From Podospora anserina (lineage: Eukaryota), in the NCBI GenBank assembly GCA_017654855.1, contig CM030335.1, positions 372,001 through 436,000 of the forward strand: DNA of 64,000 nt, written 5' to 3'. The notes under the pieces are model-generated. The model was given only the letters and a program-made list of their open reading frames with translations. It did not search any database and was not told the DNA's origin. Made by a program: the position numbers and the translations under genes. Each line of letters starts with the position of its first letter. Position 1 is the first letter of the stretch. Positions 11,785 through 52,626 of this stretch are shown piece by piece.

Positions 11785-13236
11785 ATGGGGAATAAGCAGT
11801 CGAAGCAAGATTCAATTCAAGAAGCCAGCACTACTGCTATGCCACCACCTCCAGCGCCAGGGCATCCATATCCACCAAGGACAAACAGCATCCCCAAACT
11901 TGACACCGACTTCCTGCTACAACCACCTGATGAAAGTTCCATCAGACGCCCGTGGCTGCAGCTCAACAATCTCATCGATTCACATGTTCAAACGTTTTAC
12001 ACCAACATCGCCAGCATCGACAACATTGCCCCTCGCGAAAAGATACAAGAAGTCCTGCTGGTTTCAGGAATCGTTGAGAGCACCAAGGACGTCGATAACC
12101 TCACAGAATTACTTTACGTTCCGAGGCACAGGAAGCTTGGGTTGCGAATATGTATTGCCCGGGCAGTGCTTGCGAGTATCGACTTTCAGAATGGAAGCCC
12201 TGAGATGACATCTCTCGACAGACAGGTTGTGGAGCTCATGAGCCGCTTCAAGACACTGCGGCCTGAACGAAGTCCAGAAGAAGAGGCTGCTATCGCCCAC
12301 TGGCGTATGATCACCGCCTTTTTCCTGGCCCCAGACTCGAAGCACTCAAGAGCGGATCTCGCCGGGGAGATTCCATGTGTGGACGTTCTCGTCAACTTCC
12401 TTGGGCTCTTCAAGCGACATTCGGATATTGCCAACCCGGAGCGAGCCGAACAAGGAACGAACAACGCAGACCAAGATTGGAAGGGGAGCATCAGGACCAT
12501 CGCCCTCCACGCCATCGGCATTGGAGAGAAACTATTCTGCCACCCCTCCACCTGGACCTTTCGCTGGTGCTCGCATCGCAAGGAACAACAAAGAGAAGCC
12601 TCGCAGATAGTGCTATTCCCAGCTCTTGTTGAGGACGTGCTGTCAAACAGCAGCAAGAGACGTCACAACACCATTCAGGCAGCCGACATCTCTCCTGCCT
12701 TTGTGTTCTCACCGAATGGCACCGTAATACCGGCACCAGAACAACAACTAGATCCAATACCGGCACCGGCGTCACCGAGCAGATCACCGAGCTCCACTGC
12801 CTCGAGGCCAGCCAGCATAGGATCTGGCGGCGGCGGCGGCGGCGGAGGAAGTGGCGGAGCACGCTGCACTCCGAACCAAGTCATTGCCGCCAGATCATCA
12901 CGAAGGAGCTACTTTGGAGAAGACAGCCCTCAGAACCATTACGTGACGGTGAATGGCGATACAGGATTCTCGACAACAATACCACCGGGGTCAAATGTGA
13001 ATATTGTCGTTGTCCCAAGACGGCCGTCAACCTCTCGCACCGGCAGCGGCACGCTGGTCTCCCCGGTGGTGTATGACAATCGAAGACCGATAGTGATCAG
13101 TCACTCTCCCGAGTCTCATTCGAGACGCAGCAGGAGACCACACTCGGCAAGTAGGGTGGTATATCCGGAGGAGTATGGGGAAGACTACGAGCGTGTCAGC
13201 AGGAGGGATAGTGCCAATCGGTATCGGACAGCATAA
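11785..13236 (+). CDS. Hypothetical protein with N-myristoylation motif, divergent from the Hsp70-like gene
   Basis: Uninterrupted 483-aa ORF starting MGNKQSK (MGxxxS/K consensus); helical core followed by an S/R/P-rich tail. Confidence 0.75.
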   Translation: MGNKQSKQDSIQEASTTAMPPPPAPGHPYPPRTNSIPKLDTDFLLQPPDESSIRRPWLQLNNLIDSHVQTFYTNIASIDNIAPREKIQEVLLVSGIVESTKDVDNLTELLYVPRHRKLGLRICIARAVLASIDFQNGSPEMTSLDRQVVELMSRFKTLRPERSPEEEAAIAHWRMITAFFLAPDSKHSRADLAGEIPCVDVLVNFLGLFKRHSDIANPERAEQGTNNADQDWKGSIRTIALHAIGIGEKLFCHPSTWTFRWCSHRKEQQREASQIVLFPALVEDVLSNSSKRRHNTIQAADISPAFVFSPNGTVIPAPEQQLDPIPAPASPSRSPSSTASRPASIGSGGGGGGGGSGGARCTPNQVIAARSSRRSYFGEDSPQNHYVTVNGDTGFSTTIPPGSNVNIVVVPRRPSTSRTGSGTLVSPVVYDNRRPIVISHSPESHSRRSRRPHSASRVVYPEEYGEDYERVSRRDSANRYRTA

Positions 13237-13862
13237 ATAAATTATGAAGGATGGTGGATGGATTGTTTTCACAGTGATGGATCATGAATGAAATCCCGAG
13301 CGGCGTTGATTGCTCATAATGACCCAAGCGCCAATGTCATATTTTTTTGTCTGATATATTTGCCTTGAAAAACGCCATCACAGGGCATCTGTCCCGATGG
13401 CTCAAATTGACGTCGATATTCCCGTCGGGTGAAGATCTGGACAGTGGCCCTTCGTCAGAGGTCACCATTTGATCAGTTCCGGGTCGCGGGTGACCCCCAC
13501 ACGATGGACAGCACGGTTAGAAGCGGACGGACTCGGTTTCCGGACCAGATCCACGGGATTTACAAGCGTATCAAGGAGATGCCTCACCCAAAGCACTCAA
13601 TTCCCCGACAGTCCATTCTCCAACACAAGTGAGTCGCATTCATCAGATACACTATTATATTGCTCTTCAGATTAGTTGCAGCTGAATCAAGCACCCGCCT
13701 CTCATTGGCTGCCTTTTGGTGGGGCACTGCGCCGTTGGAGCAGGGGCTTCATCCCAAGTTCAGTTGCTGACGGAGTGAATTCCGACTCTCGCATTTTCAT
13801 AAGAAAGACCATTTTCTCTCGCTTCCTTTGCTGGTTTTTCCTTTCCTTCCCTCATCATCACC

Positions 13863-15710
13863 ATGGCGTTGCTGGCCGCAATCAACGACGCGGGCCTCGG
13901 CGCCCGCCATGCCGCGCTCGCCATTGCCTTCTTGCTGGGATCGGTTATCGCCCACTATCTCTTCCGAGGCTATCAGGTGAGAAAGACATTCAAGGATCTC
14001 GAAAAGCAAGGTATAGTGAGTACTCCAAGTCGGCCCCTCCAAGAAAGGCCACGACACTGACCGACAACTCACAGCCAATTATGCAACATTCATGGATACT
14101 TGGCCATCTCGAAATCGTCGGCAGACTCCTCAAGGACCTGCCCTCGGACGCCCACGGCAATTACCTCCCGATTCTCATACTCGAAAACTGGCGCGAACTC
14201 TTCCCTCAATGCGACAACCGACCACCGGTCCTCTACCTCGACATGTGGCCCTTTGCCCAGCCATTCTTGTTGCCCCTCCTGCTGCCCATCGCGGTCCAAT
14301 TCACCCAAGACCACTCCCTCCCCAAGGCTCACGAGCAAAACAAGATCCTCCGACCCCTGACAAAGAACAAGGACCTCTCAACCATGGACGGAAACGAGTG
14401 GAAAGTCTGGCGGAAGAGGCTGAATGTAGGGTTCTCGATCCAGAACATCACGAACCGCATCCCCGACATGCTGGACGAAGTGGAGAAGTTTTACGACAAG
14501 CTCGAAGCCAAAGCTGGGAGGAATGGCGAGTGGGGCCCGGTCTTCCAGATGGAGTTGCAGACGACGAAGCTGGCGATGGATATGATCTTTCGCTTCTTCT
14601 TCGGCAAGCAAGTCCATGCCAGACTGGCCCATGTCCAGCCAGCCCTCGAAGATGCCGTCATGGACACGATTCGGAGATTTGTCTTTTTTCACCACATCGG
14701 CAACTTTCTGGTCGAACACAGCCCTTGGAGGAAGTTCAAGTTGTGGAAGAATTACCGGACTTTGATGGCAGGATTGGGCCCCGTCCTGCACCAGCGACTG
14801 GGCGAGTTGACCGCCGACGATAAGCCCCGAGCCAAGGTTGCCGACACCGTCGTGGACGCCCTGATACAAGGAGTCATGGAAGATCGCGACGCAGGGTTGG
14901 TCAACACATCGGACCGGGATTTCTTGGAATTGGCAGTTGGGCAAGTCGGCATGTTCATCTTTGCTGGACACGACACGACTGCGAGCGCTATTTGCTGGGT
15001 TCTCCACTTGCTATCGAAACATCCCGAGGTTTTGGAAAAGGTCAGGGCTGAGCACGACGCGGTTCTTGGGCCCGACCCGAATGCTGCCGCCAGCGTGCTG
15101 CGCGCGAAGCCAGAGTTGATCAACGCGCTCACTTACACCAACGCTGTCATGAAAGAGGCCATGAGAGTACATACCAACGTCGGCACCATGCGGAGGGGCG
15201 AGCCCGGTTTCTATCTCACAGGGCCAGCCGGGAGTGGATATGATGGGGTGAAATTCCCTTGCGGGGAAGGGTGGGTGGTATGGGACAACACCTTTGCGCT
15301 GCACAGAGACCCGGAGCAGTGGCCAAGGGTACATGAGTTCATACCAGAGAGATTCCTGATCACGGACGAGAACGATCCTATGCACCCACCAAAGAACGGC
15401 TGGAGGTTCTTCGAGCTCGGGCCGAGGAACTGCATCGGGCAGCATCTGGCGATGGTGGAGATCAAGATGGCGCTGGTGCTGGTGTTGCGGAGGTTGGATG
15501 TGAAGGCTGCTTGGGATGAGTGGGATGCTAAGAGGTGCGAATTCTACCCATCGAGTCTTGACAAGGTAACTAACATGAAATCAACCAAACAGGGCCCTCA
15601 AGGGAAAGAAGACGTCCATGATATGGGGTGACAGGTGTTATCATGCTGGGGGGGAGTCGCCGCCTCACGTCAAGGACCACATGCCGGTTCACATTCGATT
15701 GAGGCAGTAG
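13863..15710 (+). CDS. Cytochrome P450 monooxygenase (2 introns)
   Basis: N-terminal TM helix, AGHDTT I-helix, EAMR (ExxR), PERF and heme motif FELGPRNCIG. Confidence 0.95.
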
Positions 15711-16209
15711 TCGCTATTGAGGAGGCACGTCATGCGTTTGATTTTGTCTTGGAAACGGGAAGCGGAGGAAAAGAAAAGCGGACAGTAATGTTTAATGACA
15801 GTATTAACAAACCTCATAGGCTACTTGATTTGTCGCTGAATTCGTCAAGACCCTAGACCCTGAATTGTGCTTTTGGTGTGGTGATGAGCCTTTTGATACG
15901 ATTGCCGTGTGCTGGGAATACTACCTCTACAGGATCACAGGTCTCGGTTTCTCGGCGGTGAGAAAATGGTGAGGGCCTCTGATTGGGCCGGCAAGGACGA
16001 GCTCGATATTACCAACCTGCGAGGGCATCCTGCACATTCACCCCCGGCTACCACGAGGGGATTTGAGAACAATAGCCGTCATGCGCCGGCTACCCGGTTA
16101 TCTGCAGCGCGGGGATATATCCCAAGACCTGCCCCCTCCTCGAGGCTGAGAAATGCTTGTTCATTTTGGTTACCACTCCGCAACGGCATTCACCTCGACA
16201 TTCAACAGA

Positions 16210-18190
16210 ATGAAAAGCTCAACGATTTTGGCCTGGTGGGCTTTGACCGCTGGCCAGGGGGTGATTGCAGCAAGGGTGAAGCTTCATGTTCCTATTGTGG
16301 ACTTGGACTATGCGGTTTACGAAGGGTATCACAACTCAACTTTCAACACCAATGTTTTCCGAGGGTAGGCTTCCACACTCAACATCGAATTCCACGAGAC
16401 GCTGGCTGATATTGACGATCTAGCATCCGTTTTGCCGCTCCGCCGAAACGATGGCAACTTCCCGATGCACCTGAGGTTGACAGGGCTTCCGTAACCAAGG
16501 CAGTCAACAATCCACCGAGATGTCCTCAGTCCGGTGCTGCGCCAGGGTAACCTGAGTCTTCTATTCTAGTCGTCAAGATACTGACATGGATTTGTCAGAC
16601 CTGCCGCGGTCAACTTCACACAGGACGTACTGGGTGATGAGGACTGCCTCTTTCTCAACGTCTTTGCCCCGGTCAGGGCGAAGAAGCTGCCTGTTTTGGT
16701 ATGGATTCGTACGTCTTCCACCAGCCCCAGTCCAAAGACCACATAGGTATTAACTCTTGCAGATGGCGGCGGCTATGGGCTCGGGTCCGCTGCTAGCTTT
16801 GACTTCTCCCACATGGCCCAGACCGTCAACAACGGCTTCGTCAGCGTTGTGATCCAATACCGCCTTGGAGCTTTTGGGTTTCTTTCGTCGGCAGAAGTAG
16901 TAGAGAACGGGGGGGTTCCCAACGCTGCTCTGCACGACCAGCGGTTTGCCTTGCAATGGGTGCAGAAGTACATTGATCGGTTTGGCGGCGACCCAGACCA
17001 GGTCACAGTCTCGGGTGGGTCGGCAGGCGGTGGATCAGTGATGTTGCTTGCGATGGCAAACAACGGAACAGAGGGGAACTCGTTGTTCAGACGCGGAATC
17101 GCGAGCAGTCCGTATTTGCCTACTCAACCGTACGTTTCCCTTTTACTTGCGTCATGATTTTGTGCTGAGGTGCCACAGCAATTTCGACGATGGCCTGCCA
17201 ACAGAATACTACCGCCAACTCGCCCGTCGCACCAACTGCCTTAACGCCACCTCTGTCTTCTCCTGCCTCCGAAACGCTGACACGTTGCTCCTGCAAAACG
17301 CCTCCTCAGCAACAAGCTACTCTGCCCGGTTCAACCAGTGGGCTTTCATCCCCGTGACCGATAACAAACTCATCTTTTCCTCCCCCACCGAGCAGCTCCC
17401 TGCAGGCAAAGTCAACGGGGAGGCCTTCCTCGCTGGTGTAAGCCCCCCCCCCCGCTTCCCCCCTTTGCCCCTCTCCCAAAACAATGCTAACCACTCTGTG
17501 TGTACAGAGCAACTCAAACGAGGGCTACTACTTCACCCCCCAAAACATCACCTCCCAATCCACCTTTCTCTCCTTTGTCACCCTCAACTACCCTTTCCTG
17601 TCCCCCGAGAACATCTCCTCCATTCTCTCCCTCTACACCCCCTCCCCTCTCCCCGCCGACACTCCCCTCTTCGAAACCGACGGCCTCAACCCCCCTTTTG
17701 CGACTGAGATGTCAGCAGTTGGGAAGGGCTGGCAGCAGGCAGCGAATAATTTGTATGCAGAAACAACATTTGTCTGCACGGCGTACTGGCTGGTGGAAGC
17801 GTACGGGGAGAAAGGGTGGCAGTATCAGTTCTCCCCTCCAGGGGCAGGGTTTCATGGGAGTGACAACGGGCCTTTGCTGCAGGACTCCAAGATTGGGAGG
17901 AGTGGGACGGTGATGGATGAAGAGTTTAGACGGGGGTTTCAGGGGGTTTGGGGACGGTTTGTGACTAGGGGGGTGCCGACTCTGGATGGGCAAGGGGAGG
18001 GGGCGGTGGCGGAAGCGGTGAGGGAGGGGGTATGGAAGGCGGGGGGGAGGGACTCGTTGTTGAATCTGAACGTTACTGTTGCTGAGGGGGGGAGGGAAAG
18101 GGTGAATACCTGGGCGGTGGTGGATGGGGAGGGCTGGGAGGGGGGACGGGGGGGAGGTGCAGGTTTTGGAAGGGGGTTGGGTTTCGTTGA
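16210..18190 (+). CDS. Secreted type-B carboxylesterase (multi-exon; apparent frameshift near the C-terminus)
   Basis: Signal peptide MKSSTILAWW, EDCLFLNV, LPVLVWIHGGGY (spliced), QYRLGAFGFL, FGGDPDQVTVSGGSAGG nucleophile elbow and FHGSD His; the terminal RCRFW lies out of frame after a G run. Confidence 0.9.
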
Positions 18191-20946: not shown

Positions 20947-21879
20947 TCAGACGCTCACTGGCCCATGGGTTATCGCGTCCTCATCAGTGTAGCCCTGCTC
21001 CAGCATGAACACCGCCTTTTTCAATCCATAATATCTTGCCAGTTCCAACGTTGTCGCGTGGGATACTCTATATGGCGGGGGGTGCTTGTTACCCACCATC
21101 CACCCTGTCCTTGGTTCCATGCTCATCTTGTCCCTCATCTCGCTTCCGTATTTGATGAAACAGTTGTGGATATGGGTTTCGGTAGTTCGTTGCTGCCCTG
21201 TGCTCGCTCTGCGTAGCAGAAGTAGTGTTGCTAAGGCTTCATACCGTCCTTCAATCGCCAGGTGAAGAGCCGTCCGTTTTGTTGTGCTTTGACCTTGATA
21301 CTCATACACTGGCTCTACATCCTCCGACCATCTATGCAATAGTGAGCGAGAGGCATGTAGGTACGGGTCAGGAGGTATGTTCCAAGCTTGGCTATATACC
21401 TCCTCGGTCAAAGCATTGATGGTGGCACAGCCTGGATGGCAGTCTAACAGTGCCCGGGCTACATCAAGATGTCCTTTTCTCGCAGCGTGATGTAATGCAG
21501 TATGTCCCGAGCCATCTTTTCTTTTAGCCTCTGCACCCTTTTCCAGAAGTATCCGCACGACAGCTTCATGCCCTCTCTTTGCAGCAAGCTTTAGCGGCCT
21601 GGGGTTGGAGCCATGGCATCCCTTGAGAGCAGGGTCGGGTTCGTTGGCTGTTGCCCACCAAGGAGGTGCCCGATTATCAATGATTTCCTGGTTGAAGCTG
21701 GGTTGGTTAAACATCAGTCTGACAGCGTTGGTAATCCCAAAGTGTGCTGCCAAGTGTAAGCCTGTCCACGGTTCTTTGGTGAAATCTTCGCCTGAGATGG
21801 CCCCACTGTTCCTCACAAAAGCACAACATGCATCTGTCTTGCCTTTATTGTGCAATATAGCCAAGGCATCTTGTATCAA
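20947..21879 (-). CDS. Ankyrin-repeat protein (5' end uncertain, possibly a truncated NLR remnant)
   Basis: TGLHLAAHFG, PLKLAAKRGHEAVVRILLEKGA, TALHHAARKGH and TALHLAIEG repeats; upstream frames are interrupted. Confidence 0.7.
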   Translation of the reverse strand: MIQDALAILHNKGKTDACCAFVRNSGAISGEDFTKEPWTGLHLAAHFGITNAVRLMFNQPSFNQEIIDNRAPPWWATANEPDPALKGCHGSNPRPLKLAAKRGHEAVVRILLEKGAEAKRKDGSGHTALHHAARKGHLDVARALLDCHPGCATINALTEEVYSQAWNIPPDPYLHASRSLLHRWSEDVEPVYEYQGQSTTKRTALHLAIEGRYEALATLLLLRRASTGQQRTTETHIHNCFIKYGSEMRDKMSMEPRTGWMVGNKHPPPYRVSHATTLELARYYGLKKAVFMLEQGYTDEDAITHGPVSV

Positions 21880-22321: not shown

Positions 22322-25300
22322 TCAAAGCTTCATCGAAGAAACAAACCTCACCGCCAACCCCGTCACCACCTCCGGCGCCTTTCCCCCCATCCTCAACCCC
22401 TCCGTCGGCCCCTCAAAATACTCCCACACCTCAATAAACTTCCCAATCTCCCTATCCACCCCCATCTTCTGAAAAACCAACTTCATGTTCCTATGATCCT
22501 TCAAACTCACCAATCTCCCCGCCTCCACCACCGGCCCTGCCGCCCCTGACCCAACCCCATTCACCGCCGTACCCCCACCACCACTCTTCACCCTCTCCCT
22601 CTCATTCTCCCCAAATATCGCAGCCAACCTAACAACATGCAACACCAGCGCCGCCAACCCCGCCGCCAAAGCCGTAGCAACCGAGCTCCCCGTGTTCTCC
22701 TGGAAATGACTCGGTATACTACTATTAATCGTCTCATGCCGTGAAACAACCGAACACCCCGGAAAGATAAAGTTCAAATTGTGGGTGTCACCCGACCTCT
22801 CCCAGGGTCTGCCATCGTCGGTAGCGGCACCAATTCTGATGATGCGGCTACGATCAAACTCGTAAGGGTACTCCTCGTCAGAGAAGTTCCCTGCGTCGCC
22901 TGCCGCGCAGAAGACGAGGATGCCGGCGTCGAGAGCGCGTTTGATGGCGTCTCCGAGGTCTTTGAGGTCGGCGTCGCGCTCGCGTTCTTTGGGCTTTTTC
23001 ACAGTCCAGGAAATGGAGATTATATCTACCCCGCGGGCGACGGCGGCGTCGACAGACTGCACGGGGGTTAGGATTTGAGCGGAAAGAAGAGGGAGCGCAT
23101 ACGGGGGGTGGCATACCTGGGTGGCGCTTCTGGCTACGATCTGGTTGTGAGTCTGCCCATCGACTAGGGAGTCCGGGGAGAGGTGTGTTTCCAGCTTGAA
23201 GACGTAGAGTTTGGCGGTTGGACAAACTCGGCAAATCATATCCGCCATGACGGTGCCGTGGCCGCTGGCAGAGATAAAATAGGGGCTTGGGCCGTTCTCA
23301 TCTGGTTCGCCACGGTCAAAGGTTGCTCCGCCAATGACTTTACCCCCGATAGAGGAAGTATCGATATTAACTCCATCATCAATCAGAGCAACAGTGATGT
23401 CTTTTAGCAGTAGCTTGTGCTGAGTTGGAGGCACCTCGACACCTTGGATCCCATCGGCAAAGGCGTCCATGCAGTTGAGCCACTTGTGGGCAGACAGATT
23501 CCTCTGGTTTGCTACACGCATGGGCTTAGCGCGGGTGCCGGAAGATGAGCCACTGTCCCCCCGCGAAAAGTTCTCCTCGATGGTTTCAACAGTGATTGTC
23601 CGAACAGGCCCATCCATGGAGGGACGGTCTCCGGTAACAGTCCGACGAATCCCAGGAACGGGAACAGCCTTGTCATTCTGCGGTCGAGCAGCAGCGGTGA
23701 TACCCTGCTTCTCCAGCTCATAATTCCGGACGGCTTTTCGTAACCGGCGCTTGAAGTCCTCCACATAAGATTGGATGCGGTCAGCTGGCTCTAGGACTTC
23801 CGCGGAATTCCACAACAAGTGGATAGTCTTGAGTTTCTCAAGCCTCACCAACCCATCCGGTTCGCTCCATGCCCGCAGGACAGCCCTGTTTCCACTCCAC
23901 CACAAGTGCAGATGGCGGACATGTTGACAGGCGACAAAAAGTGTTTCGGGACAGATGTCCGATTTCCGCCACTCGAGACTCTCAATCTCAAAGTGCTTCA
24001 GGGAGTCTTCTATGGCCTTGTCACTGTGAGGTCTTTCGGGCCAATCGTCGACCACGACCTTGAGGATATGCTTGACAGACTTCTCCCGAAGCCAGTTGAA
24101 AAAGAAGACGAGGTCCACCCGGCCGCGGCCAGGCCTTGGCTGCTGTGCAAGACGTTTGGCGTGGAGTTTGCTGGTGTTGTTTCCGGGGCTGTCCAGCTCG
24201 ATCTTGTTGAAGGCGACATATCTTAGGACGCTGTCAAAACGCATATGAGCGAAGCTCTGTTCAAAGTTCTTGCGGGTAACTGGTGAAACTGCTTTGGAGT
24301 AATCAAAATACAAGTTCCAATCTGGTGGAGCGTCAGTGACAACACCGTACTGTCGTGATGGCTCTGATACACTTATACGTACCCTGGATGTTGGACCCGT
24401 GGAGAAATCGCAGTGCCTGGCTCTGATCTCGCGGTTGAGGACGATCTGGTGTCTGGAACGTGGACCGAAGGTAATGCAGTTTGATACCCTGGATGATCCT
24501 GTCTGCCCACTCCCTGTTCACATCACGTTTAACTCCATTGATAGGTCCCGGCGGAGGTGGGTCCATATTTCTTGTTGATGGGGCATTGGACTGTTCACGG
24601 ATCGCCTCTCGTCCTCGCTGAGGTTCAACATCGCCCCCCTTCTTGCCGGGGGCATGGTTTGTCGTGCGGCCCCGAGAACTTTCCACATTGTACAGGTGAG
24701 GTACGTTATCTGGAAGATGACCGACTCGGCCAGACGGAGATTTTCCCCGGTTCTGATTTGAAGATTGAGAGGTCCCGTTCGGCTCACCAGCCTGGCCCGC
24801 CAGCAAGCCCGTTTTTCGTTCAGCATCCGCCCGTGTATAATAGTGATATTCGTAGACAGACAGTTGTGAGGGATTGGTAGTGAACTGGTCCAAGCATTCA
24901 TCTGCTCTCTGCAGCAAAGCCTCAACAATCCGCTGCTGGCTAGCAGAACAGCGGTCGTACTGAATGGCAAGATGCAAGGGGGTCAGGCCATCATAGTCTC
25001 CGGCGCAAAGAGTGCCCTTGGAGGCTCTCTGTATAAGATTCAAAGTATGTTGTTCGGGGAGATTGTGGATTATGGCAGCATGGATGCTGTTTCTGCCGTG
25101 GTCGCATGTTCTAGCTAGCAGGCTGTCCAGATCTCCGTTGAACTTTTCCACGATGGCGCGCAAGACATTTTCGTTTTTCCTGGTGATGGCAATCCAGAGA
25201 GGTGTTTTGCCATTGTCGTCGGCCACGGAGAGAAGCTGTGGGCTGTTCTTGATAAGAAGCAGGGTGAGGCCTCTGTGGCCCACTCTGTTGGCAACAAGGT

Positions 25301-25574
25301 GGAGGAGTGTTTGATTTTCCGGTGCAACACGCCCTTCAAAGTACTGCTGATACTTCTGCTTGAAGGCTTCTCTGTACGCTTTGTCGCCCAATCTCAGCTT
25401 ATTGGATTCAGCATCAGCGAGAATCTGGTCAAACGCTTCTTTTGTTGGGTCTTTTTGAATGATCGCAAATGAATGGAAGGGGTTGTGGGCCGGTCCGTCG
25501 TCGTACTCCTCGTCGCTGTCGTCAACTTCGACACTCTGGGCAGGTGGAAGGTCTTGGGTGGTTAGAGTCATCAT
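22322..25574 (-). CDS. Cytosolic ankyrin-repeat / LRR-like / subtilisin (S8) serine protease
   Basis: Exon 1 carries ANK repeats (QTLLHL, GKTPLWIA, GRNSIHAA, GLTPLHLA); introns 24322-24382 and 23057-23116; catalytic triad VALIDDGV (D), SASGHGTVMA (H), NTGSSVATALAAG (S); no signal peptide. Confidence 0.9.
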
Positions 25575-25859
25575 GATTGTCCGTAACGTATACAGAGGTG
25601 AAAGATGATAGATTGAGTGAAGCTGTCTGCACAGGTGCCCCCCCAGTCAGAGAGGAGCGGGGTGCCTCCAGTCCGCATCTCCTCCTGCAGCCCAGCTTCC
25701 AGCCTCATCATTGGAAGTCCTGATACGACTGGCGTCCCACCCCACTCACACCCCACCCTGAGTGAGCACTAGTAACGCGCCTTTCCATAGTGAACACAGT
25801 GCCGATACAGTCCCAGTCCCCAATGCAACCCTACGATGGCTTCGCCACTGGGTGCCTCC

Positions 25860-26720
25860 TCACCTTTGTTCAGGTAGCCCTTTTCTGAAAGTGACGTTGG
25901 GAACAGTCGATAGCTGCTTGAAAGCTTCCGCAAGGTTCATCTCATCATAGTGGGTTCTCTTGGACTCGATTGTCGGATCGAACAGGACCGGATCGTCAGG
26001 TGGTGTAGAGCCGAACACAGATTCCAATGTTGTACGCCAGTCAGCGCGCGCCTTGATGGTGACGGAGCACTGGAAAAGCTCTTCATCCTCCCTCTCAAGC
26101 AGGACAGCGGCCCGCATGGCGACGGGAACACCGGTCTCGGTCGCGGGATTCTCCAGCAGTGTCCACGAAGCCGAGTTTGGCTGGCCAAAATTGCGCCCCC
26201 GGAGAGACTTTGCGCCCACAACGGTTGCAGCGTAGGTCATATCCCTGGTGATGCTCTTGTCTATGCTGATACCGGCGCTCAAGGTTGGGGCAGGGCCAGG
26301 AGTGGCGCTTATACCCAGATTTCCCGAGAGCGTGCTTGACTCGGTTTGGGTTGTTGGAGCAACGGTGAAGTTTCCGTCAGGGGAAATGGCCCTGACCTCG
26401 GGCTGGTAGGGACTGTTGGGATCCAAACTACTGAATCGGAGGTCAATGTGGACGGAAGCGATGCGTCGGGCGCGTTTGCGGGAGTCGAAACGGAAGTCGA
26501 GGACTATCAGGGTACAAAGAATATCGCTGTCGGGTGACAGGAAACCGTGGACTACATCGGCACAGGAGCACCGGACGTCGACGGCGCCCTTCCGTTCAAC
26601 GTAGTTCTGCCGTTGGAGAGGCTTGTTGGGGTCGTTTTTAGTGTGAAACTGACTCCCACTGTCGCCAGTGGGAGCAAGTGCGATGTTCCAAGAGAGCGAG
26701 TCTGCCGCTTCGTCTTCCAT
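25860..26720 (-). CDS. Uncharacterised 286-aa beta-rich protein; candidate beta-pore-forming protein
   Basis: Intronless ORF without signal peptide; strand-like segments flank an S/T/G-rich alternating hairpin (TTQTESSTLSGNLGISATPGPAPTLSAGISIDKSITRD). The CDS is well supported; the function is inference. Confidence 0.8.
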   Translation of the reverse strand: MEDEAADSLSWNIALAPTGDSGSQFHTKNDPNKPLQRQNYVERKGAVDVRCSCADVVHGFLSPDSDILCTLIVLDFRFDSRKRARRIASVHIDLRFSSLDPNSPYQPEVRAISPDGNFTVAPTTQTESSTLSGNLGISATPGPAPTLSAGISIDKSITRDMTYAATVVGAKSLRGRNFGQPNSASWTLLENPATETGVPVAMRAAVLLEREDEELFQCSVTIKARADWRTTLESVFGSTPPDDPVLFDPTIESKRTHYDEMNLAEAFKQLSTVPNVTFRKGLPEQR

Positions 26721-27204
26721 ATTTTCATCCGAGGTAGCGGGACGGAGCGATGGAAATGAACATTCGAAGAGGATTATGGGAAACTAGGGTTATCGAACCA
26801 GTCTTCTATGACGACGAGGGAGGGGTTTTGCTTACCGGCCTGCCACCTTTCCTTTCTCGGCATCGCTTGATCGAAAAGACCCCTAAAGCGAGTGATTTTG
26901 TCGAGAAGCAGTCTTCGCGAACTTCTTGGTTCTTCTTGGTTGAGCAGAAATCCTTCAGGCCTCCCTCCTGAAACTCGCACTGTACAGATAGATGTGTGCT
27001 AACCAATGGCGATTGAGACCCAATCATGCAATTTTGCGGCACAGCTGCCTAAACCTCCCAAAACCCCGCGCCTTCGACTCCACCACCCACTGCAGATGAT
27101 GGGAAGGAACGACGACGGGGTTCTGGCAGGCACAGAGGAGCCCCCAGAGCCGAGGGGTGCTCGTCTTGAACCGTCAGTCTTCACCATCCCATACTCTTCT
27201 CATC
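26721..27204. promoter_or_regulatory. Putative bidirectional promoter
   Basis: 484-bp gap between head-to-head start codons at 26720 (-) and 27205 (+). Confidence 0.45.
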
Positions 27205-30200
27205 ATGTCGTTGGATATTCATTTTTCTGGTGAACCTGGGGATGCCAGCTTTGAGTATGTCCACTCTGCCATGACTCGGGCACAACCATCACTGACAGAT
27301 ATCTTATCTAGCCTAGTAGCTGTCCATGGATTCTTTAACACATCGAGCGAAGCATGGGACCTTGGTTCGGAATCCGAACCATGGTTGAAGGAGCAGTTGA
27401 CGGCCAAAAAACGCTATGGCCGCCTTCTATTTCATAGATATGACACTGGCGCCTCCGCAGTTCAAGGCCTCTGTGGTCGAGATGCAATCCAGAAGGAGGC
27501 CATCATGCTGCTGCAGAAGGTTGCCGAACAACGAAAAGACCAGGACCCCGTGAGTCCATCGGGACCTACAAGACAACATGATATTATGACTAAACCCAGA
27601 GTAGCCTCGACCACTTATTTTTCTCGCCCTGGACTTTGGGGGGTTAATCATCAAAGAGGTGCAGTGCTTGATCATTTTGCTGCCTGCTTATTGACCTCGA
27701 TCTTCTGACCTCGAGTATTTCCAGGCCATCATCCAAGCGAGCAGACACACGCTTGAGTTTGCAAATATCAGTGCTTCTACCCGTCTAATGGTATGTTTCT
27801 TCCATATTCCGTCGCTGTAAAATCTATGCACATGCCGAACTAACCTTCCGTCCCCTGCTTCTTGCAGTCTTTCGTTGGTACTCCGCACAGATGGCACAAC
27901 GAACAAGACCTAGAATCAAAGCTGGCCAGCTTTCTATTTGCCAAGCGGCCTACAGCTCTAACTGTTGAGGACATCAATCGGCTGGCGAAGACTGTCTCAT
28001 CCATCTCTGAAGAATTCCTACAAACAAGAGCAACCATCCACAGTACACTAATCAGTGTTTGTTCAGAAGCTCCTGACGCGTATGGGGTGAGTCAACTCAA
28101 AGTTTCCGTGTTTGTTTCTGGATAATCGCAGCTAACGAAGAGTTCTAGATTCATCAGATCTTCACGTCGAGTTTTGGCATTCCCATGGAGTTGCGCTTCT
28201 CCGCCCAGTCAGTTGATGCGGTCCAGGAGGTGAGCGTGCGGGACGCTCTTATCGAGACTCTAGAATCGAGAATTCTTGGAGTGATCAACAGTGTGTTATC
28301 TACACCCAACCACCCACCACCGACTTCTGTGCTGACATGTGTTGCTTTCAGCCCCAACTCCAACCCACACACTAGCTTGGCTGAACGGTGCTGTTGTCGT
28401 TCAGGCTCCGTCACCCACCCCAATTATGTCTGTAAAAACAGCCGACAGTGACCATGTGCCATTTTCATGGCTGGATGATAGCCCGGTTTTCAAGGAGTGG
28501 ATGAACCACGAAGGATGTAAAATCATGCACATCCATGGCTCGTCCAATGTCTCAGTCGCCGCGTCTTATGCCTACCAACAAGCCCGAATACACGCGTCGA
28601 CTGGAGGTTTTACAAGCGGTCTAACACTGTATTTCAGATTCGACCGCCACGATTGTCAAAGAAACACCATCAAGTCAATGGCGACCTTATTCCTCGCTCA
28701 GACTATTGCCCGGTTCGGCACCCTTCCAGCCTCCGCTCAGTTTCCAAGCTTTGAACCACCGCTGTTTGACAAGGCCCTTACGGAAAAAGATGTCTTCTTT
28801 TTGCTCAACAGCTTTCGACTGGATTGCAACAGGCCAGCAAGAACGACATGGGTGCTGGACAGACTCGATGAGTGCGAACCAGCTTCGTGCAACTGGTTTC
28901 TTAACGAGTTGGCCTCAATCGCAGCGCGATGCGAGTTGTACTTCAAGGTCTTGATTACTACTGCCAGTCCTAAGCATGTCCAAACTCAACTTGCTGCCGC
29001 CGGCTGCGAAAGCTTGTCCTTGGATATCGCCTCCTCGCAGGTGGGCCCCGGAATCAAAATACCGCCGGTCCCAGCCAGTCGCCACTGTCCAGCGCTCGAG
29101 CCGTATGCACCTCAACTCGGCGATCTGCTTGGAGCGTGCCAGCCTGACCAGGATCTTTTCAGAATGGTTGTGGACTGGCTTAATTTGCAAGCTTCTCGGT
29201 GGAATACAAGAGCGGAAATAGCCGAAGTGGTGACGGCATTGTCTCCCCCATCACCGCGGGTGCTGTTGGGAGCGGTAATGCAGGCTGTACCCACACTTTT
29301 ACGGCCGATTGCTCGCGACATTCTTTGCTGGGTTCGGAACGCGGTCCGGCCTCTGACACCACTTGAATTAGCATCGGCCCTCGAGTTTCAAGGAGCTGAC
29401 TTGGGATGTCTTAATATCGAGTTGTACATCCCCAAGATCTTCGGACCACTTCTCACGACTCGCCACGGTGAAGTTCACTTCACACAGCCATGGGTTCGGG
29501 AGCTTTTGTCAAATTTGGAAAAGACGACCCATTGGTATGCGGCGGCCTCGACAGCAGATGATCACAAAGAAATTGCCAAGGCGTGTCTTCGCTTTTTGCG
29601 TCTTCCTGAGACGATCAAGGCATTGTCTCAGAGGTGTGGTGGGGCAAAGGCCTCGGGAGTCTTGCTCACTAGCCGACACGACATTGTCTCCTATGCTGTC
29701 ACGTTCTGGCCAACACACTACCGCTTGGGATACCTGGCAGCAGACTCATCGGCTTCGGCACCCCAAGACCTCATTTCATTCCTTGGAGATCCGAAAGCTT
29801 TGAGAGCGTGGTTCAGTGCTCATGGGTGCCTGTTGCCGCCGCACCACCAACCCCATAGCTCATATCTTTCCGCCTTACCTATAGTCTCGCATTTAGGACT
29901 GGAAACACAGGTCGAGAACATGCTTCCCATACATGCCGACCTTCCAACCAGCCTTCAGGAACTAGAGGACGCTTTATGTGAGGCTTCCAGAATGGGTCAC
30001 AAAAACATTGTGGATTTGCTGCTCAGCAGACCATGGACATTGACGTTGCACGGTGTGGTTGGGGCAATGGAGGCCGCAGCCCTCGCAGCTGAGTATGAGC
30101 TAGTAGAAGTGTTGTTCGCGTACGCCAAGAACAAACACAAGGACCAGGCGACATCGCATATGTACCCTCATTCCATCCTTGCTCGACTAGCTTGGGCAGG

Positions 30201-32892
30201 GAAGGGGAAGCTTCTGGAGTCACTGATGCAAGGTCGCCCATCCGGAGACCCAACAAGTCCAACAGTACCAGCCTCCAAGCTTTTGTGTGCTGTGGCAACC
30301 GGTCAGCTCGGCACCATTAAGACTCTTCTCCAACATGGCGAAGACGCGAACTTTCAAGATGACACCCGGCTTTCACGCACACCTTTGCATATGGCATGCC
30401 GATCCGGATATGGGGACGCAGTCAGGGCTCTCGTTGCAGATAGCGCCGCGGATATTGAGGGTCACAACGGACAGGGCCAGACAGCACTGCAGAAGGCCAT
30501 CAATCTTGGAAACATTGACGCCACGAAAGCTCTCTTGGACGGTGGCGCAGACATCGCCAGCGTCGAGGCTGAGATACCGCGGACCGATGGCTCTTTTCCG
30601 TATCCTGCTTTCTATATGGCTGCTTGCGAGTCTAGCTTCCAGTGCATTACGGCGGTGCTGGAACGGGGTGTCAATGCAGATGCCACCACAGATGAGTACA
30701 CCCCTCTCTGCTATGCAGCCGTCACCGGAAAGCTGGCTTGGGCAAAGCTTCTCCTGGCTCACGGAGCTCGAGTGAATGGATTAGGAAAATGGGTCCCGCT
30801 GTGTCAGGCCACCGCGAAAAACACTGGAAAGAATATGGATATGGTCAAACTTCTGCTTGAGCACGGCGCCGATATGAACGCTTCGGGTCCAGCTGACGTT
30901 GCTACTCCATTGGAGCGGGCTTCGGAGGCAAACTTGTTGGAAGTCGTCGAGTTCCTCATGGCCAAGGGGGCCGACATTGGGCTTCACGGGGCTGGAAGTA
31001 CAGCTCTGTCCCGTGCTGCCTCGAAGGGTCATACAAAAATGGTCCGTTATCTTTTGAAAGCGGGATCCAACCCCAATGAGGCCCATCCAGAAGCAACATC
31101 ATGGAAGGCATTGCACTGGGCGCATGGTCATCCCGAGTGTCTAGAGGTGCTTCTAGATAGCGGTGCCGATATCGACGCCATGTCGAAAGACGGCACCGCA
31201 GTATACATTGCGTCGTACAACAACCACCTGGAGTCTGTCAAGCTCCTCATCTCACGTGGAGCCAACCTCGAATTGACATGCGAGTTTCCAGACTTATGGG
31301 ACTCGAACTGTACAGCTCTTCTTGGGGCCGCTGGAAAAGGCAACGCTGAAATTGTGCGGGCTCTTCTAGATGCTGGTGCCGACATCACAGCCAGGTCGAC
31401 AAGGGACGAGACAGCTCTGCACCTCGCGATTAGCCATGGAAACAGCGAGGCCACAGTTAGGGTCCTTCTCGAGTATACTCCTGATTTGAATGCCCAAGAG
31501 TCCTTCTTTCAACACACCGCTCTTCATCGACTGATGTTGGAGGCAACCACGCATCTCAGTATAGCGAAAATTCTAGTCACGCGAGGGACGAGCCTTGAAA
31601 TACGAAACAAGGGAGGATATACTGTTCTCGATTATGCCATTTACTGGCGTGAGTATGAAGTTGCCAAATACCTCGTCAGGGCAAAGGCCAAAATCAACAC
31701 CGTCGGCAGTACTTGGGGAGGACCGCTCCACATTGCTTGCTGGCGAATGAACCTTGATATGATCAGGTTTCTTATGGCGAATGGTGCAGATGCTAACCTG
31801 ATTGATAACTCCCGTGGTGTACCGTTGCTCGTAGCCATGACTGAATATCAAGAGGGAGAGGATGTGACGCTTGAGATGAAAACAGCTGTCGTCCGTTATT
31901 TGATTGAGGAGGCAAAGGCGGACGTGACGGTTCGGGGAGGGATGTATTTCATCACGGTTCTCAACGGAGCATGCATGCAACCGGATGCAGACCTGTTGCA
32001 ATATATCCTGGACCAGGACCCTGTGGATTCCGACATGAATACAGCAGGCTTCAACGGCTGCCGGCCCATCCACTTTGCAACATATCAGAGTTTGGAGCAT
32101 GTTTCAAAAGTGTTGGCCAGAGGGGCTGATATCAATGCCTGTGACAAGCTCGGACGAACCACCCTCCACACAGCGGTCGCCAGTGGCAGACCAGATGTTG
32201 TCGAAAAAATCTTATCACTGACCGGGAGCCGGTATATCAACGAAATCGATCGAGATGGATGGACACCGCTGATGTGGGCGGTGAGGCAGTGTTCACACTG
32301 GGGTGTGAAGTCGGATAATCAAGAAGAGATTGTCCGATTATTGCTTGATCACGGCGCCAGCCTGTGGATAACTGGCAGGACATGCAATGAAGAGGGATGG
32401 TCAGCGCTGAAGTTGGCCCGCTACTATGGAGCCTCCCAAGAGGTGATTTTACTGCTTACCCCAAAGCAGAGACACTATCTCGATGACAAAGGAGAACCCC
32501 AAGTGTGGGACCCGCAGGCACATCGTTCCCGCAGGGCAAAAAGACAAAATGGCTTCTGCGACTTGTGTCTATATGTAAGTTCATCAGGTTCGAATCCTAT
32601 TTCTCCCAACCTCCAGAGCTAACACAATTGACAGACCCTCTGGGGCTCGGGGTACGCCAACGGACGGCTGTGGCTTTGCGCCAAGTGCTACACGTATCAG
32701 AATGAGTTTTTCCCCGAACTGAAGGACTGGAAACCGGCGAACGATGGAGAAGAGTTTGATCCTGACGCGCCGGAAGAACAGGAGGAGGAGGCAGAACCAG
32801 CGGTGGGTGAGATTGGCGAGCCGTCGCCAGGGCAGGTGAAGCAAGTACAGACCACGGAGGCGGATTATTGGTCTGATTCGGATTCGGATTAG
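27205..32892 (+). CDS. NLR-like protein: SesB-like alpha/beta hydrolase, NACHT-like, many ANK repeats, CxxC/CxxC zinc-finger-like tail (8 exons)
   Basis: Introns 27255-27311, 27550-27604, 27659-27724, 27791-27867, 28087-28148, 28291-28351 and 32575-32634 keep the frame. Motifs: DLVAVHG, RPLIFLALDFGGLIIKE, FVGTPH; W...FKEW, LYFRFDRHD, VLDRLDEC, KVLITT, AVRPLTPLEL; roughly 20 ANK repeats; FCDLC...LCAKC. Confidence 0.88.
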
Positions 32893-33377: not shown

Positions 33378-35534
33378 ATGCAAGTCCGAAAGCTCAAGAC
33401 CATCGTCAAGACCCTCCAGGCCTTCAACTACCACACCGCTTCCAAGCTCGAAAAGCCCGAGACAGACTTCCGCCTCCTCGAGCTCTACCCCGCATCGGCA
33501 TCATTACCTTCTAATTCGAGGCCGTCAACAGCAGAACCCCCCGATAACGCTTCCAAACCCCAGCATGGGAACTCTCCAAAAAGCAATAATACCATGCCAT
33601 CAAAAGATACCCCACCTCCCCTACTATGCCGCCTCTTCACCACCCCCCTCACCAACCCCTCCACCACTCCCTTCAAAGCCCTCTCCTACGTCTGGGGCTC
33701 CGACGCCACCCCCCATTCCATCAACGTCATTTCCACCCTCCCCAACGGGACAACCACAACCCTCTCCCTACGAATAACCTCCTCCCTCCACACCGCCCTC
33801 CTCCACCTCCGTGACCCCGACGTCCCCATCACAATCTGGATCGACCAGCTCTGCATCGACCAGTCCAACCCCGCCGAAAAGTCCGCCCAAGTCTCCCTCA
33901 TGGGCAAAATCTACTCCGCCGCATCCCAAGTCCTAGTCTGGCTCGGTCCTGCCTCGCACAACTCCGATTCTGTCATGCAGCTCTGGGCCGCCGTCGGCCA
34001 AGAAGTGCGCGACATGGGCATCGAAAGGTACTACACCAAAGAGGGCTGGCCCCTCCTCCACGACATCATGTCCAACACCGACCCCTCCGACCCCGAGACA
34101 CGGCAGTACCAAGCCCTACTTCAAAAACACGCGCCCGATTTCGCTGCTCAGATCCGCGACGGAAGCATCAAATCCTGGTTTGAAAGGCCCTGGTTCACCC
34201 GTGCGTGGGTGACACAAGAATTCTGCCTCTGCCCCGACACCGTCTTTGTTTGCGGCGATCAAAAGCTCGATGTCGACTTGGTGATGCTCGCGGGGCAGAT
34301 ACTAAGTTACTCAACCTTGCTCCTCGTCCGCCCGCCTTATTCCCTCACGGTGGAGGAGTTATCCTCTCTTGACGATCCCACGGCGGATTTCTTCAGCTGT
34401 CGGAAGCGTCGGAGGGGTTATGAGACCAAGACTGGGGATGCAAAGGGTGACACGCTTTTCGTGCTGTTGAAAAAGATGTTTGTCGGCAGGGAGACGTACG
34501 CAAAAGTTTGGAGGGACAGGGTCTACTCGCTGCTGGGACTGGCGGTAAATGCAGAGGCGTTGGGGATAAGGCCTGATTATGGGGACTTGTGGGGGGAGGA
34601 AAAGACGGTGGAGATTATGACTGATGTGGCGAGGAGGATGATTACGAATGATTACTCGGAACGGGTGGATGTGTTGTGTTATTCGAGGTTCCCAAAGGAA
34701 GTTCCAGGGCTGCCGTCTTGGGTGCCGGATTGGAAGACGAATACGGTCAAGTCGTATTATCAGGTGCAGGAGGTGGTTGACCCGCATTATTTTGCGGCTT
34801 GCGGGGAGGGGAATCTGGAGGTTCAAGTGGTGCCATCTTGGTCAACACGGGTGCTGGGGTTGGGGGGGTTTTGGGTCGATACTGTTGACATGCTGCCTCC
34901 GGGAGATGGCAAGGAAGTCTGGTCTGATGTGCACAGATGGGATGGGCCGCGCTTGATGGGGTATCTGAGGCAGGTCGAAGCTCTGCTTGAAGCGGCAATC
35001 TCTAGACCTAGCAACCCGTATGGCTCCGACGAACGACGGCTCGAAGCACTTTGGAGAGTTCCCATTGCAGATACGTGGGATGATCGGTCGACGGGGGTGC
35101 GAGCGTCTCGAGAGTTGAAGGTCGATGTGCAGTTTCGACAGGTCGTCGAGGCGATGTTATATGACATTTGGATGAAAACAACAACAGCTGAACCGGCAGA
35201 AGCTCAACGTATCATGGACGAGTTCAACTGGGACGAAAGAATGAGGAAAGATAAGCTGGGGGCGAAGTACAGGCAGTTTATGTTATCTGGTGGTGGTAAC
35301 AAGAAGCCATTCTTGACGACGAAGGGCTACGTGGGCATGGGCCCACCTGATATGGAAGTAGGAGACGTGGTGGTCGTGTTTTGCGGTGGGAGGATCCCGT
35401 TCGTGGTGAGGCAGCTGCCAGCCAAGGAAGATGGAAGGAAGACCTTCTCGTTTGTGGGTGAGGCGTTCTGTGATGGCATCATGGATGGGGAGGCTGCCAT
35501 GGAAGAGAACCGTGGTGACTTTTTCTTGGAGTAG
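33378..35534 (+). CDS. HET-domain protein (HET-6-like heterokaryon incompatibility family)
   Basis: FKALSYVWG, IWIDQLCIDQ, EKSAQVSLMGKIYSAASQVLVWLG, PWFTRAWVTQE, LPSWVPDW and C-terminal GYVGMGP...GDVVVVFCGG...VGEAFCDGIMDGE. Confidence 0.93.
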   Translation: MQVRKLKTIVKTLQAFNYHTASKLEKPETDFRLLELYPASASLPSNSRPSTAEPPDNASKPQHGNSPKSNNTMPSKDTPPPLLCRLFTTPLTNPSTTPFKALSYVWGSDATPHSINVISTLPNGTTTTLSLRITSSLHTALLHLRDPDVPITIWIDQLCIDQSNPAEKSAQVSLMGKIYSAASQVLVWLGPASHNSDSVMQLWAAVGQEVRDMGIERYYTKEGWPLLHDIMSNTDPSDPETRQYQALLQKHAPDFAAQIRDGSIKSWFERPWFTRAWVTQEFCLCPDTVFVCGDQKLDVDLVMLAGQILSYSTLLLVRPPYSLTVEELSSLDDPTADFFSCRKRRRGYETKTGDAKGDTLFVLLKKMFVGRETYAKVWRDRVYSLLGLAVNAEALGIRPDYGDLWGEEKTVEIMTDVARRMITNDYSERVDVLCYSRFPKEVPGLPSWVPDWKTNTVKSYYQVQEVVDPHYFAACGEGNLEVQVVPSWSTRVLGLGGFWVDTVDMLPPGDGKEVWSDVHRWDGPRLMGYLRQVEALLEAAISRPSNPYGSDERRLEALWRVPIADTWDDRSTGVRASRELKVDVQFRQVVEAMLYDIWMKTTTAEPAEAQRIMDEFNWDERMRKDKLGAKYRQFMLSGGGNKKPFLTTKGYVGMGPPDMEVGDVVVVFCGGRIPFVVRQLPAKEDGRKTFSFVGEAFCDGIMDGEAAMEENRGDFFLE

Positions 35535-51300: not shown

Positions 51301-52626
51301 CTGAAGGTTCTCCAGGATATACTGTCGACAAGCTTCCAATTCTTCCGAGGACATCTTGTACAAGGGGTTGGACCCTATGTCTTCAGGTCTCTTACCCGGG
51401 GTAAGTTCGATCTTGTGGTCGTAGTTGCGAGAGGGTGGCAATCGGTCCGAGTCTTTCCTGCTAAACACATCTCGATACTCGTGATAGTGTGACGGGAGCA
51501 CCGAATCAACCAGCGCTCTCAGACTCTCCTCATCTTCGGCCAGAGGGTCGTCTTCAGCTTCTCTCTTGCGGGCGATCTGTATGTACTTGTCGATTTCCAT
51601 CAGGGTGATAACTCCCACCTCAGGGGTGTCAAGCTTCCCTGCGACCTTGAGGAAGGTTTCGGCTTCCAACACGGCAATATCGATGGTTCTGTCTTTGTAC
51701 CAACCGACACAATCTCGCTTCAAGATGTAGGCGCCTTGGCCGTCGTACTTGATCCGGTCTCTCCGTTCTTTCTGCTTCTCGCGGGCCTTTCGCAGTTCCT
51801 CCAGGGACGGCAGAGGCTTCGGCTCGTACCCATTGAGGGCTCTTGTCATGTTGCGTTCTCCCCTCATGATGGCGTTGAGCAGGCCGGGGTGAGTATCGAC
51901 CGTCTGGTCGGGGATTGCCCACCGCACATGTTTTTCTTCGGGGATGGGGGAACTGTCGGCTTCCGCTTCTTCCCACTTGCCATCCTCTTCATCGTAGAGC
52001 TCCTTTTCGTTTCGCTCAAGCTCCAGGATGCGCTCCTGAACCAGGAGCAGGGTAACGTCAACCTCCCTGGGCACGTTTGTTGCTTTGGGGAGGTAATACG
52101 GGTCGTCGGGGTCTTCATGCGCCTCGTCGCCCGGTGTGGCGGCCTCACCAGGAGCTGTGTCGAGGTCCTCCTCGAACACGATAGTACTCGATTTAGGGTG
52201 CATCCAAACAGACCACTCCTCGAGCTATATCTTGCCCAAGATAATGTCGGTGGGCATATCCAGTACCAGCAGGACCTGCTCCTTCATTATCTTTCCTTCT
52301 AAGAGTAAGTCTACCACGATGGCGACGTCTACCTTTTGTCTTCCTTTTCCTGAGTAGCCTCCCACTACCACGGGGGCGAAATCGCTCCTCTAAGGGACGC
52401 CCATCTTTTCGACCAATTGCTTCGTAAACTTTACACTTACAAAGCCATACCCATTAGCTCCCGTGTCCAACAGTGCGTCGTCTGTGTTAATCTGATGTCC
52501 ATTATAAGCTACTGAGTAAGGGTATACTAAGGGGGAACCCCCGAAGAATTCTGCTATGGGAAACCCGTCACCAACATCCGTCCTGCCTAATAAACTGACC
52601 ACTTCCTTAACCAACGCGAGTGACAC
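48301..52626 (-). pseudogene. pol: pol polyprotein (protease, RT, RNase H, integrase, chromodomain) with in-frame stops
   Basis: LLDTGA, RLCVDYRKLN, MPFGVTNGP, YIDDIL, ETDASD, HPGRNKT, SDRGPQF, GQAE, VFHADRLR, EEWEVDRIL; stops at about 52390, 52225, 50419, 50207, 49177, 48961 and 48553. Confidence 0.95.

Follow-up and report, generated by a model that had tools for sequence, protein, structure and literature searches.

Current accounts of regulated cell death in fungi rest on a small set of executioner families, namely, HeLo/HELL, gasdermin, HET, patatin, and SesB-type domains, and the pairing of a protease with a gasdermin is the main link between this process and animal pyroptosis. Of the fungal gasdermin genes, 80% lie within 10 kb of a protease gene (PMC8851545; PMC12881547). 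HET-Q1 loses about 5 kDa at its C terminus, likely at F238 (PMC12881547), and the HET-Q2-like proteases have a long N-terminal extension with ANK, TPR, or WD40 repeats (PMC8851545). The protease-controlled executioners known beside HET-Q2-like proteases in fungi are gasdermins only (PMC8851545). Here we describe a cluster of three genes in a window of 64,000 nucleotides from Podospora anserina (GenBank assembly GCA_017654855.1, contig CM030335.1, positions 372,001 to 436,000 of the forward strand; all coordinates below are those of this window). The cluster encodes a protease with ankyrin repeats (ANK) and a subtilase domain of the S8 type, a small protein of 286 amino acids (aa), and a NOD-like receptor (NLR) with ankyrin repeats. 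Based on the conserved linkage of the three genes in other fungi, we conclude with high confidence that the trio is one inherited functional unit. It is probably a protease-triggered cell-death or immune module, the executioner of which is not a recognisable gasdermin.

The closest described systems are the het-Q1/het-Q2 clusters (Clave et al. 2022, PMC8851545), which pair a gasdermin with an S8 or CHAT protease and where a cytosolic multidomain protease with repeats and a C-terminal S8 domain is likewise encoded beside a cytosolic protein of about 280 to 300 aa whose short C-terminal segment follows a conserved aromatic residue. Those clusters are also widespread in Ascomycota and may be present in several copies per genome, just as Coleophoma and Xylogone have two copies each of the small gene described here. 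Unlike HET-Q1, the small protein shows no sequence relation to gasdermins, and its predicted structure is free of helices except in the tail and contains a very long hairpin. Unlike the case of HET-Q2, the NLR is a separate third gene and is not fused to the protease. The three-gene het-Q clusters also differ from this trio, as they consist of one gasdermin and two proteases (PMC8851545). In bacteria, the CARD-NLR-like/protease/gasdermin systems and their effector variants (Wein et al., PMC10312443) resemble the locus in that an NLR-type ATPase, a protease, and an effector are encoded together, but here the protease is of the S8 type and not trypsin-like, the organism is a eukaryote, BLASTP revealed no CARD-like adaptor, and a pattern scan and tblastn revealed no prokaryotic relatives of the small protein. 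The NWD2/HET-S clusters share with the trio the placement of a fungal NLR beside a separate executioner, head-to-head or adjacent (PMC12881547); they differ in that the trio has no evident amyloid signalling motif, has a protease as the third partner, and has a putative effector that is not of the HeLo type. The initial annotation of this DNA did not recognise the module as one already described, and our search also found no published description of the small-protein family or of the trio, Datasets S1 and S2 of Clave et al. lying outside that search.

Linkage and transcription of the three genes

The three genes are exactly where the initial annotation had placed them, with the same gaps of 285 and 484 bp. 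The protease gene (22322-25574, minus strand) is spread over two open reading frames (ORFs), one at 22322-24244 (640 aa, with the Peptidase_S8 domain) and one at 24333-25574 (413 aa, with the ankyrin repeats), and its spliced product has 1043 aa. The small gene (25860-26720, minus strand), which encodes the predicted all-beta protein P0001, lies upstream of the protease ATG on the same strand, and a spacer of 285 bp (25575-25859) separates the two. The NLR gene (27205-32622, plus strand) is arranged head-to-head with the small gene; the two are 484 bp apart (26721-27204), the NLR ATG is at 27205, and the coding sequence gives 1679 aa up to the stop at 32622.

Linkage of the small gene's homologues to an S8 protease and a NACHT gene had been set beforehand as the test on which the proposed module could fail. 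We collected 41 JGI metagenome loci with relatives of the small protein, searched them by tblastn with parts of the window protease and NLR, and dropped near-duplicates at 90% identity of the small protein, which left 28 groups. Beside the small gene, 21 of the 28 groups have a homologous ANK-S8 protease gene and 13 have a NACHT gene; 12 groups have the two together. When only groups whose representative has at least 6 kb on both sides are considered, 8/8 carry both the protease and the NACHT gene, and as these are distinct loci that hold all three genes, the linkage goes far beyond chance. Neither gene was found in six groups, five of which are contigs of 1.1 to 2.2 kb; in the sixth group, L035 (7.1 kb; 34% identity), Pfam identifies an ORF of the NPHP3_N/NACHT type where the contig ends. 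Locus L039 (3.2 kb, no upstream sequence) has the NLR only. The absence of a protease match at L031 is explained by the insertion of a Helitron, since an ORF with Helitron_like_N and PIF1 domains (12985-17382 of that locus) lies downstream of the small gene and fills the place that the protease takes in the sister loci L030 and L032-L034.

The position of the small gene between the other two is constant, and there are two layouts, which differ in its orientation. A third layout was seen once, at L036, where an S8 match (1385-1786) lies downstream of the small gene in convergent orientation. The ankyrin array of the NLR aligns nearly end to end in other loci, with 42% identity in L001 and L002 and 30% in L024-L026. 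Several public gene models fuse the small gene with the ANK-S8 gene (P0075, from Nemania abortiva) or with the NLR (P0120, P0114, and P0140), and these fusions reflect the adjacency of the genes. The trio is flanked, as had been annotated, by an ANK ORF (20947-21714, minus strand) and a HET ORF (33378-35534, plus strand; HET E value, 1.4e-29); neither of these flanking genes is kept beside the trio at the other loci.

All three genes are covered by spliced RNA contigs from four runs belonging to four studies (X1, X4, X6, and X10), which were placed on 22322-32300. The run type was taken to be RNA by guess, as none of the runs is registered as such; nine canonical GT..AG joints on the proper strands indicate that the contigs are transcript assemblies. 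In each run, a single contig of about 4.07 to 4.15 kb (22593/22610 to 26784/26865) runs from within the protease gene across the spacer and through the small gene. In three of the runs it extends into a 52-nucleotide (nt) GT..AG intron (26784-26835, minus strand; joint in X1, X4, and X6), which lies in the small gene's 5' leader. The small gene and the protease gene are therefore possibly co-transcribed, a single contig not being proof of one transcript, and both bicistronic and overlapping transcripts are conceivable over 22593-26865 (minus strand). Co-transcription is not required, because the small gene and the protease gene can be divergent in other species. By eye, the leader of the small gene (26721-26921, minus strand) contains two short out-of-frame upstream ORFs.

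The small protein, the protease, and the NLR

The small protein is a member of a large unnamed family that is found across Pezizomycotina. A word-indexed search gave 69 relatives of similar length, with identity down to 32%, the source names of which belong to Sordariales, Xylariales, Magnaporthales, Hypocreales, Glomerellales, Eurotiales, Helotiales, and one lichen fungus; the genera include Podospora, Fusarium, Aspergillus, Verticillium, and Colletotrichum. When the family profile was run against 1.84 billion cluster representatives, it gave 1333 matches at E≤1e-3, 861 at E≤1e-10, and 334 at E≤1e-30. A 371-aa gene model of Podospora comata contains the P0001 sequence with 100% identity. The 85 additional N-terminal residues of that model are shared with no homologue, and the model begins upstream of the reach of the RNA contigs. 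In the family alignment, conservation is strong in three blocks (NDPxxPxQR, TLxVLxFRFDxRKRARR, and NxASWTLLEN), after which come the motif DDPVLFDP and a more variable tail.

The claim that the small protein is without recognisable gasdermin sequence holds. P0001 itself has no Pfam match, and at E≤10 none of 40 family members matched Gasdermin, Aerolysin or ETX_MTX2, or LDB19 or arrestin (0/40 in each case). Among the PDB chains, at the same threshold, the family profile gave no match and the single sequence gave one chance match, and PADLOC gave no relevant match for the small protein. One relative, P0006, has the UniRef label "LDB19 N-terminal domain-containing"; this label could not be reproduced, as no LDB19/arrestin Pfam match was found at E≤10.

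An AlphaFold2 model of the small protein, made from a 40-sequence alignment, has a mean predicted local distance difference test score (pLDDT) of 77.7 and a predicted template modelling score of 0.73. It is all-beta with eleven strands, and the only helix (residues 263-272) is in the tail, with none before residue 263. Confidence is low for residues 1-24, 139-147, 230-238, and 281-286. What stands out in the model is a hairpin formed by strands 116-137 and 149-172, of 22 and 24 residues, respectively. The hairpin covers residues 116-172 (26205-26375, minus strand), and its tip comprises about residues 133-153. Mean-field direct-coupling analysis of 233 family sequences (effective number, 194), which was run before the model existed, gave as its strongest coupling cluster an antiparallel ladder between residues 125-137 and 148-161, with 10 contacts in the top 220, including ranks 6, 9, 22, 26, and 37, and this provides independent support for the hairpin. 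The column-averaged hydrophobicity alternates between hydrophobic and polar over residues 133-153, with a Gly-rich tip at the centre. In 55% of the sequences, Trp occupies column 153, which has Lys/Glu/Lys on its sides, and the flanks are rich in Thr, Ser, Gln, and Glu. Aerolysin-type toxins have such a pattern in the hairpins that they insert into membranes. The hairpin that had been likened to those of beta-pore-forming toxins (beta-PFTs) is thus borne out as an element of structure.

The motif DDPVLFDP (residues 242-249; 25974-25997, minus strand) contains a candidate cleavage site after Phe247. D243 and P244 are invariant in the family alignment. The pattern D[PA][VILM]x[FYLM] occurs beyond residue 150 in 150 of the 186 family proteins of 230 to 360 aa, the final, P1-like position being F in 125 of these and Y, L, and M in 14, 10, and 1, respectively, and the tail that follows has a median length of 44 residues (10 to 90% range, 35 to 56). 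From the 36 proteins without the motif, 20 were inspected, and each of these either has a sequence much like the motif or is a fragment, cut short or disrupted by a frameshift. The tail of P0001 (residues 248-286; 25863-25979, minus strand), which includes the single predicted helix, is proposed to be an inhibitory peptide. Couplings connect the motif segment with the core (N29-D243, P122-V245, C218-F247, and I222-I251) and also the tail with the core (V167-V276 and T230-A266), and together they fit a tail that packs on the beta core.

Aerolysin and ETX-MTX2 protoxins are all-beta proteins with long strands and one amphipathic, Gly/Ser/Thr-rich insertion hairpin, and proteolytic removal of a C-terminal peptide of tens of residues licenses their oligomerisation. 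The small protein resembles them in its all-beta model, its amphipathic hairpin, and its tail, and the nearest named clusters in a protein-language-model (Atlas) search are of such a kind. It differs in that it has no Pfam or PDB sequence match and no signal peptide, would act from inside the cell, and has a dedicated protease and NLR. Another P. anserina gene that is aerolysin-like, Pa_5_2020, encodes a secreted lectin fusion and is unrelated to the small protein (PMC3689799).

The protease was annotated as being of HET-Q2-like build, and its architecture agrees with this. The 1043-aa product consists of an N-terminal ankyrin part (approximately 24951-25307, minus strand, between two repeat motifs; Pfam Ank_2/Ank), a linker of low complexity, a conserved middle domain that Pfam does not name, and the C-terminal S8 domain (Peptidase_S8 E value, 4.4e-16). 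There are two introns, one of 61 nt between the ORFs (24322-24382), which was first predicted and then confirmed by RNA, and one of 60 nt within the S8 part (23057-23116), which was revealed by the RNA contigs. The catalytic motifs ALIDDG for Asp (23372-23389), SGHGT for His (23252-23266), and TGSSVAT for Ser (22673-22693), all on the minus strand, are conserved, and the triad is intact in all loci for which the alignment extends over these positions. The closest solved relatives of the S8 part are bacterial intracellular subtilisins, which is in line with a cytosolic enzyme. Neither a signal peptide nor a propeptide was recognised by eye.

The NLR gene has six introns in its first 1.15 kb (27255-27311, 27550-27604, 27659-27724, 27791-27867, 28087-28148, and 28291-28351, all from RNA contigs), and these are followed by the main ORF at 28426-32622 (plus strand; 1398 aa), in which Pfam identifies an NPHP3_N/NACHT-type nucleotide-binding oligomerisation domain (NOD) and ankyrin repeats. 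The full architecture is a hydrolase-like N-terminal domain of 280 residues, the NOD, a GPIID winged helix (GPIID_WHD), and a long ankyrin array. An annotated orthologue of 1749 aa, P0222 (QC763_401040), is 96% identical overall, and the spliced N terminus matches it except for scattered substitutions. P0222 extends past the window stop (about 32550-32622) with a segment of the form CxxC...CxxC and with an acidic tail that has DSDSD at its end; judged from this alignment, the window NLR likely has a further 3' intron and a longer C terminus.

The N-terminal domain of the NLR contains the motifs FDLVAVHG, xxDxGG, and FxGxPH, which are alpha/beta-hydrolase-like. At the "nucleophile elbow," LALDFGG (27623-27643, plus strand), Asp replaces the nucleophile Ser, and the same holds in 5/5 aligned orthologues (P0222-P0225 and P0120). 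This domain had been named SesB in the initial annotation, a name that was not confirmed, as there was no Pfam match at E≤1 and no PDB sequence match. In the NOD, alignment of the loci places a non-canonical Walker A, HIHGSSNVSVAAS, at 28528-28566 and a Walker B-like VLDRLDECE at 28852-28878 (both plus strand). The window has GSSNVSV at the Walker A position and other loci have, among others, GNPNVSQ, GTSGTSD, and GTTRSSK; L010, L013, and L021 keep the Lys as GxxxxSK. The DE-containing Walker B-like motif is retained in the family. The Walker A sequence is thus a conserved departure and not a one-off decay.

From the numbering of the tags, we infer that QC763_401040 is the orthologue of Pa_4_1040. 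The latter is an NLR gene on chromosome 4, near hnwd1 and het-e, that was introgressed into three of five P. comata strains and shows reduced divergence in P. pauciseta (PMC13449251). The words "protease" and "subtilisin" do not occur in that 2026 paper (PMC13449251). Should the three genes travel together, the complete module may have passed between Podospora species.

Proposed mechanism and alternative explanations

We propose that the cytosolic ANK-S8 protease would be held inactive until a trigger is sensed by its own ankyrin repeats, by the neighbouring NACHT-ANK protein, or by both. The activated protease would then cut the small protein at DDPVLF|DP, after Phe247, and remove the tail of about 39 to 40 residues that would be packed on the beta core. 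The freed core could oligomerise, and its long amphipathic hairpin would enter a membrane to form a beta-barrel pore, much as happens when pro-aerolysin or epsilon-prototoxin is activated, except that this would take place within the cell that makes the protein. On this view, the locus would be a module like het-Q2/het-Q1 with a different executioner and a separate NLR, and whether this whole chain of events is correct is, in our judgement, evenly balanced. Cleavage, its site, toxicity, and the pore are all inferred steps. A wider formulation is that the family represents a third type of executioner beside the HeLo/MLKL-like and gasdermin types, namely, a cytosolic aerolysin-style beta-hairpin protoxin from which an ANK-subtilase would clip a tail of about 40 residues at DDPVLF|DP, wired to a NACHT-ANK protein with a degenerate P loop in a three-gene module of Pezizomycotina; we put this forward as a tentative idea that is somewhat more likely to be wrong than right. 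With respect to the sensor-protease-pore pathway that had been annotated, the conserved unit, the build of the protease, the non-gasdermin sequence, and the hairpin stand, the SesB name is unconfirmed, and the Walker A motif is ill suited to a standard ATP-driven sensor.

Several observations speak against this proposal. The position of the NLR is its weakest step. The canonical GxxxxGK[ST] is missing in 14/14 covered loci, and for this reason a role as an ATP-driven sensor is doubtful. The NLR may be a sensor that activates the protease, may act in parallel through its N-terminal domain, or may serve as a nucleotide-independent scaffold, and the hydrolase-like N-terminal domain could itself be the effector. 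A low-stringency BLASTP among the NLR, the protease, and the small protein gave a low-complexity match only and showed no adaptor domain common to the NLR and the protease beyond ankyrin repeats. The cleavage site is a guess from conservation and from the analogy with HET-Q1. For the pore, the tip of the hairpin (residues 139-147) has a pLDDT of <50, Pfam Leukocidin was touched by only 1/40 family members (E value, 0.065), and the Atlas search gave the same nearest named clusters for two homologues, Leukocidin at 0.88 (144 shared features) and Aerolysin and ETX_MTX2 at 0.82 each, where scores of <0.9 are leads only, so that this range is under the level of evidence. Finally, the identity of the small protein to P0001 correlates with that of two parts of the protease, the S8 domain (Spearman rho 0.85, n=11) and the ANK part (rho 0.79, n=18), correlations which can stem from shared descent alone, and there is no such relation with the NACHT part (rho 0.03, n=12).

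Shared descent, or chance, could also be put forward as the only reason why the three genes are neighbours, as related genomes have common synteny and the similarity of the NLR is clearly over background in only the two closest loci. We find this scarcely credible, because the linkage persists in several classes of Pezizomycotina, where the identity of the small protein is as low as 34 to 38% and where rearrangements have turned its gene around, and the eight well-flanked groups, each with all three genes, come close to refuting it. It is also very improbable that the small protein is an arrestin-like trafficking adaptor in a neighbourhood without any meaning for cell death. The all-beta composition of the model would be compatible with an arrestin-type sandwich, and there is the UniRef label on P0006, but Pfam does not support LDB19 or arrestin in P0006 or in the 40 members, and neither the strict linkage to S8 and NACHT genes nor the hairpin strands of 22 to 24 residues would be explained. 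More serious is the possibility that the trio is functional and that the small protein is not its executioner. It could serve as a decoy or substrate that is guarded, could link the NLR to the protease as an adaptor, or could regulate or chaperone the protease, with death or signalling coming from the N-terminal domain of the NLR or from other targets of the protease. The constant position of the small gene between the two larger genes would fit such a role, and so would a protease without a recognisable propeptide and an NLR that has its own conserved enzyme-like N-terminal domain; for fungal NLRs, N-terminal domains of the lipase type are considered to be cell-death domains (PMC13449251). 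We nevertheless consider it rather unlikely, as an amphipathic Gly-rich hairpin together with a motif-plus-tail build is unexpected for an adaptor or an inhibitor, and the enzymatic activity of the NLR is itself uncertain given the Ser-to-Asp change at the elbow in all five orthologues.

The remaining alternative is that the small protein is a very divergent gasdermin. In that case, the locus would differ from the usual het-Q1/het-Q2-like cluster only by an additional NLR gene. Gasdermin N-terminal domains contain helices, whereas the model of the small protein is predicted to have none outside the tail and to have one long hairpin. In other respects the small protein is built as expected of a fungal gasdermin, with about 290 to 310 aa, a presumed cytosolic location, a short tail after a conserved aromatic residue, and an adjacent ANK-S8 gene (PMC8851545; PMC12881547), and fungal gasdermins are phylogenetically very diverse (PMC8851545). 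However, Pfam Gasdermin and PADLOC gave nothing, and no PDB chain was matched at E≤10 although fungal and bacterial gasdermin structures have been deposited (PMC12881547). The text of the het-Q study names as further P. anserina homologues of het-Q1 only two distant ones, Pa_6_6615 and Pa_5_3510, of which Pa_5_3510 adjoins an S8-type gene (PMC8851545). The locus studied here adjoins Pa_4_1040 and is neither of these, an assignment which depends on the inferred Pa_4_1040 tag. Taken together, we regard a divergent gasdermin as quite unlikely.

If a second, unrelated family indeed occupies the slot beside a HET-Q2-like protease, this would show that eukaryotes have a modular sensor-protease chassis, as is reported for the bacterial CARD systems (PMC10312443). 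If the hairpin is read correctly, a protein of the beta-PFT type would be used for self-killing from the cytosol. As the family is large, occurs in model and pathogenic genera, and is expressed in Podospora, these ideas can be tested directly in an established system.

Other features of the window

Apart from the trio and its flanking genes, the window contains a cytochrome P450 ORF (14081-15631, plus strand) and a tryptophan dimethylallyltransferase-like ORF (59139-60767, minus strand), which may be secondary-metabolism genes. An ORF with reverse transcriptase and RNase H-like domains (50419-52203, minus strand) represents a retrotransposon remnant or copy. The G+C content of the window drops to 0.43 to 0.44 at 54 to 58 kb.

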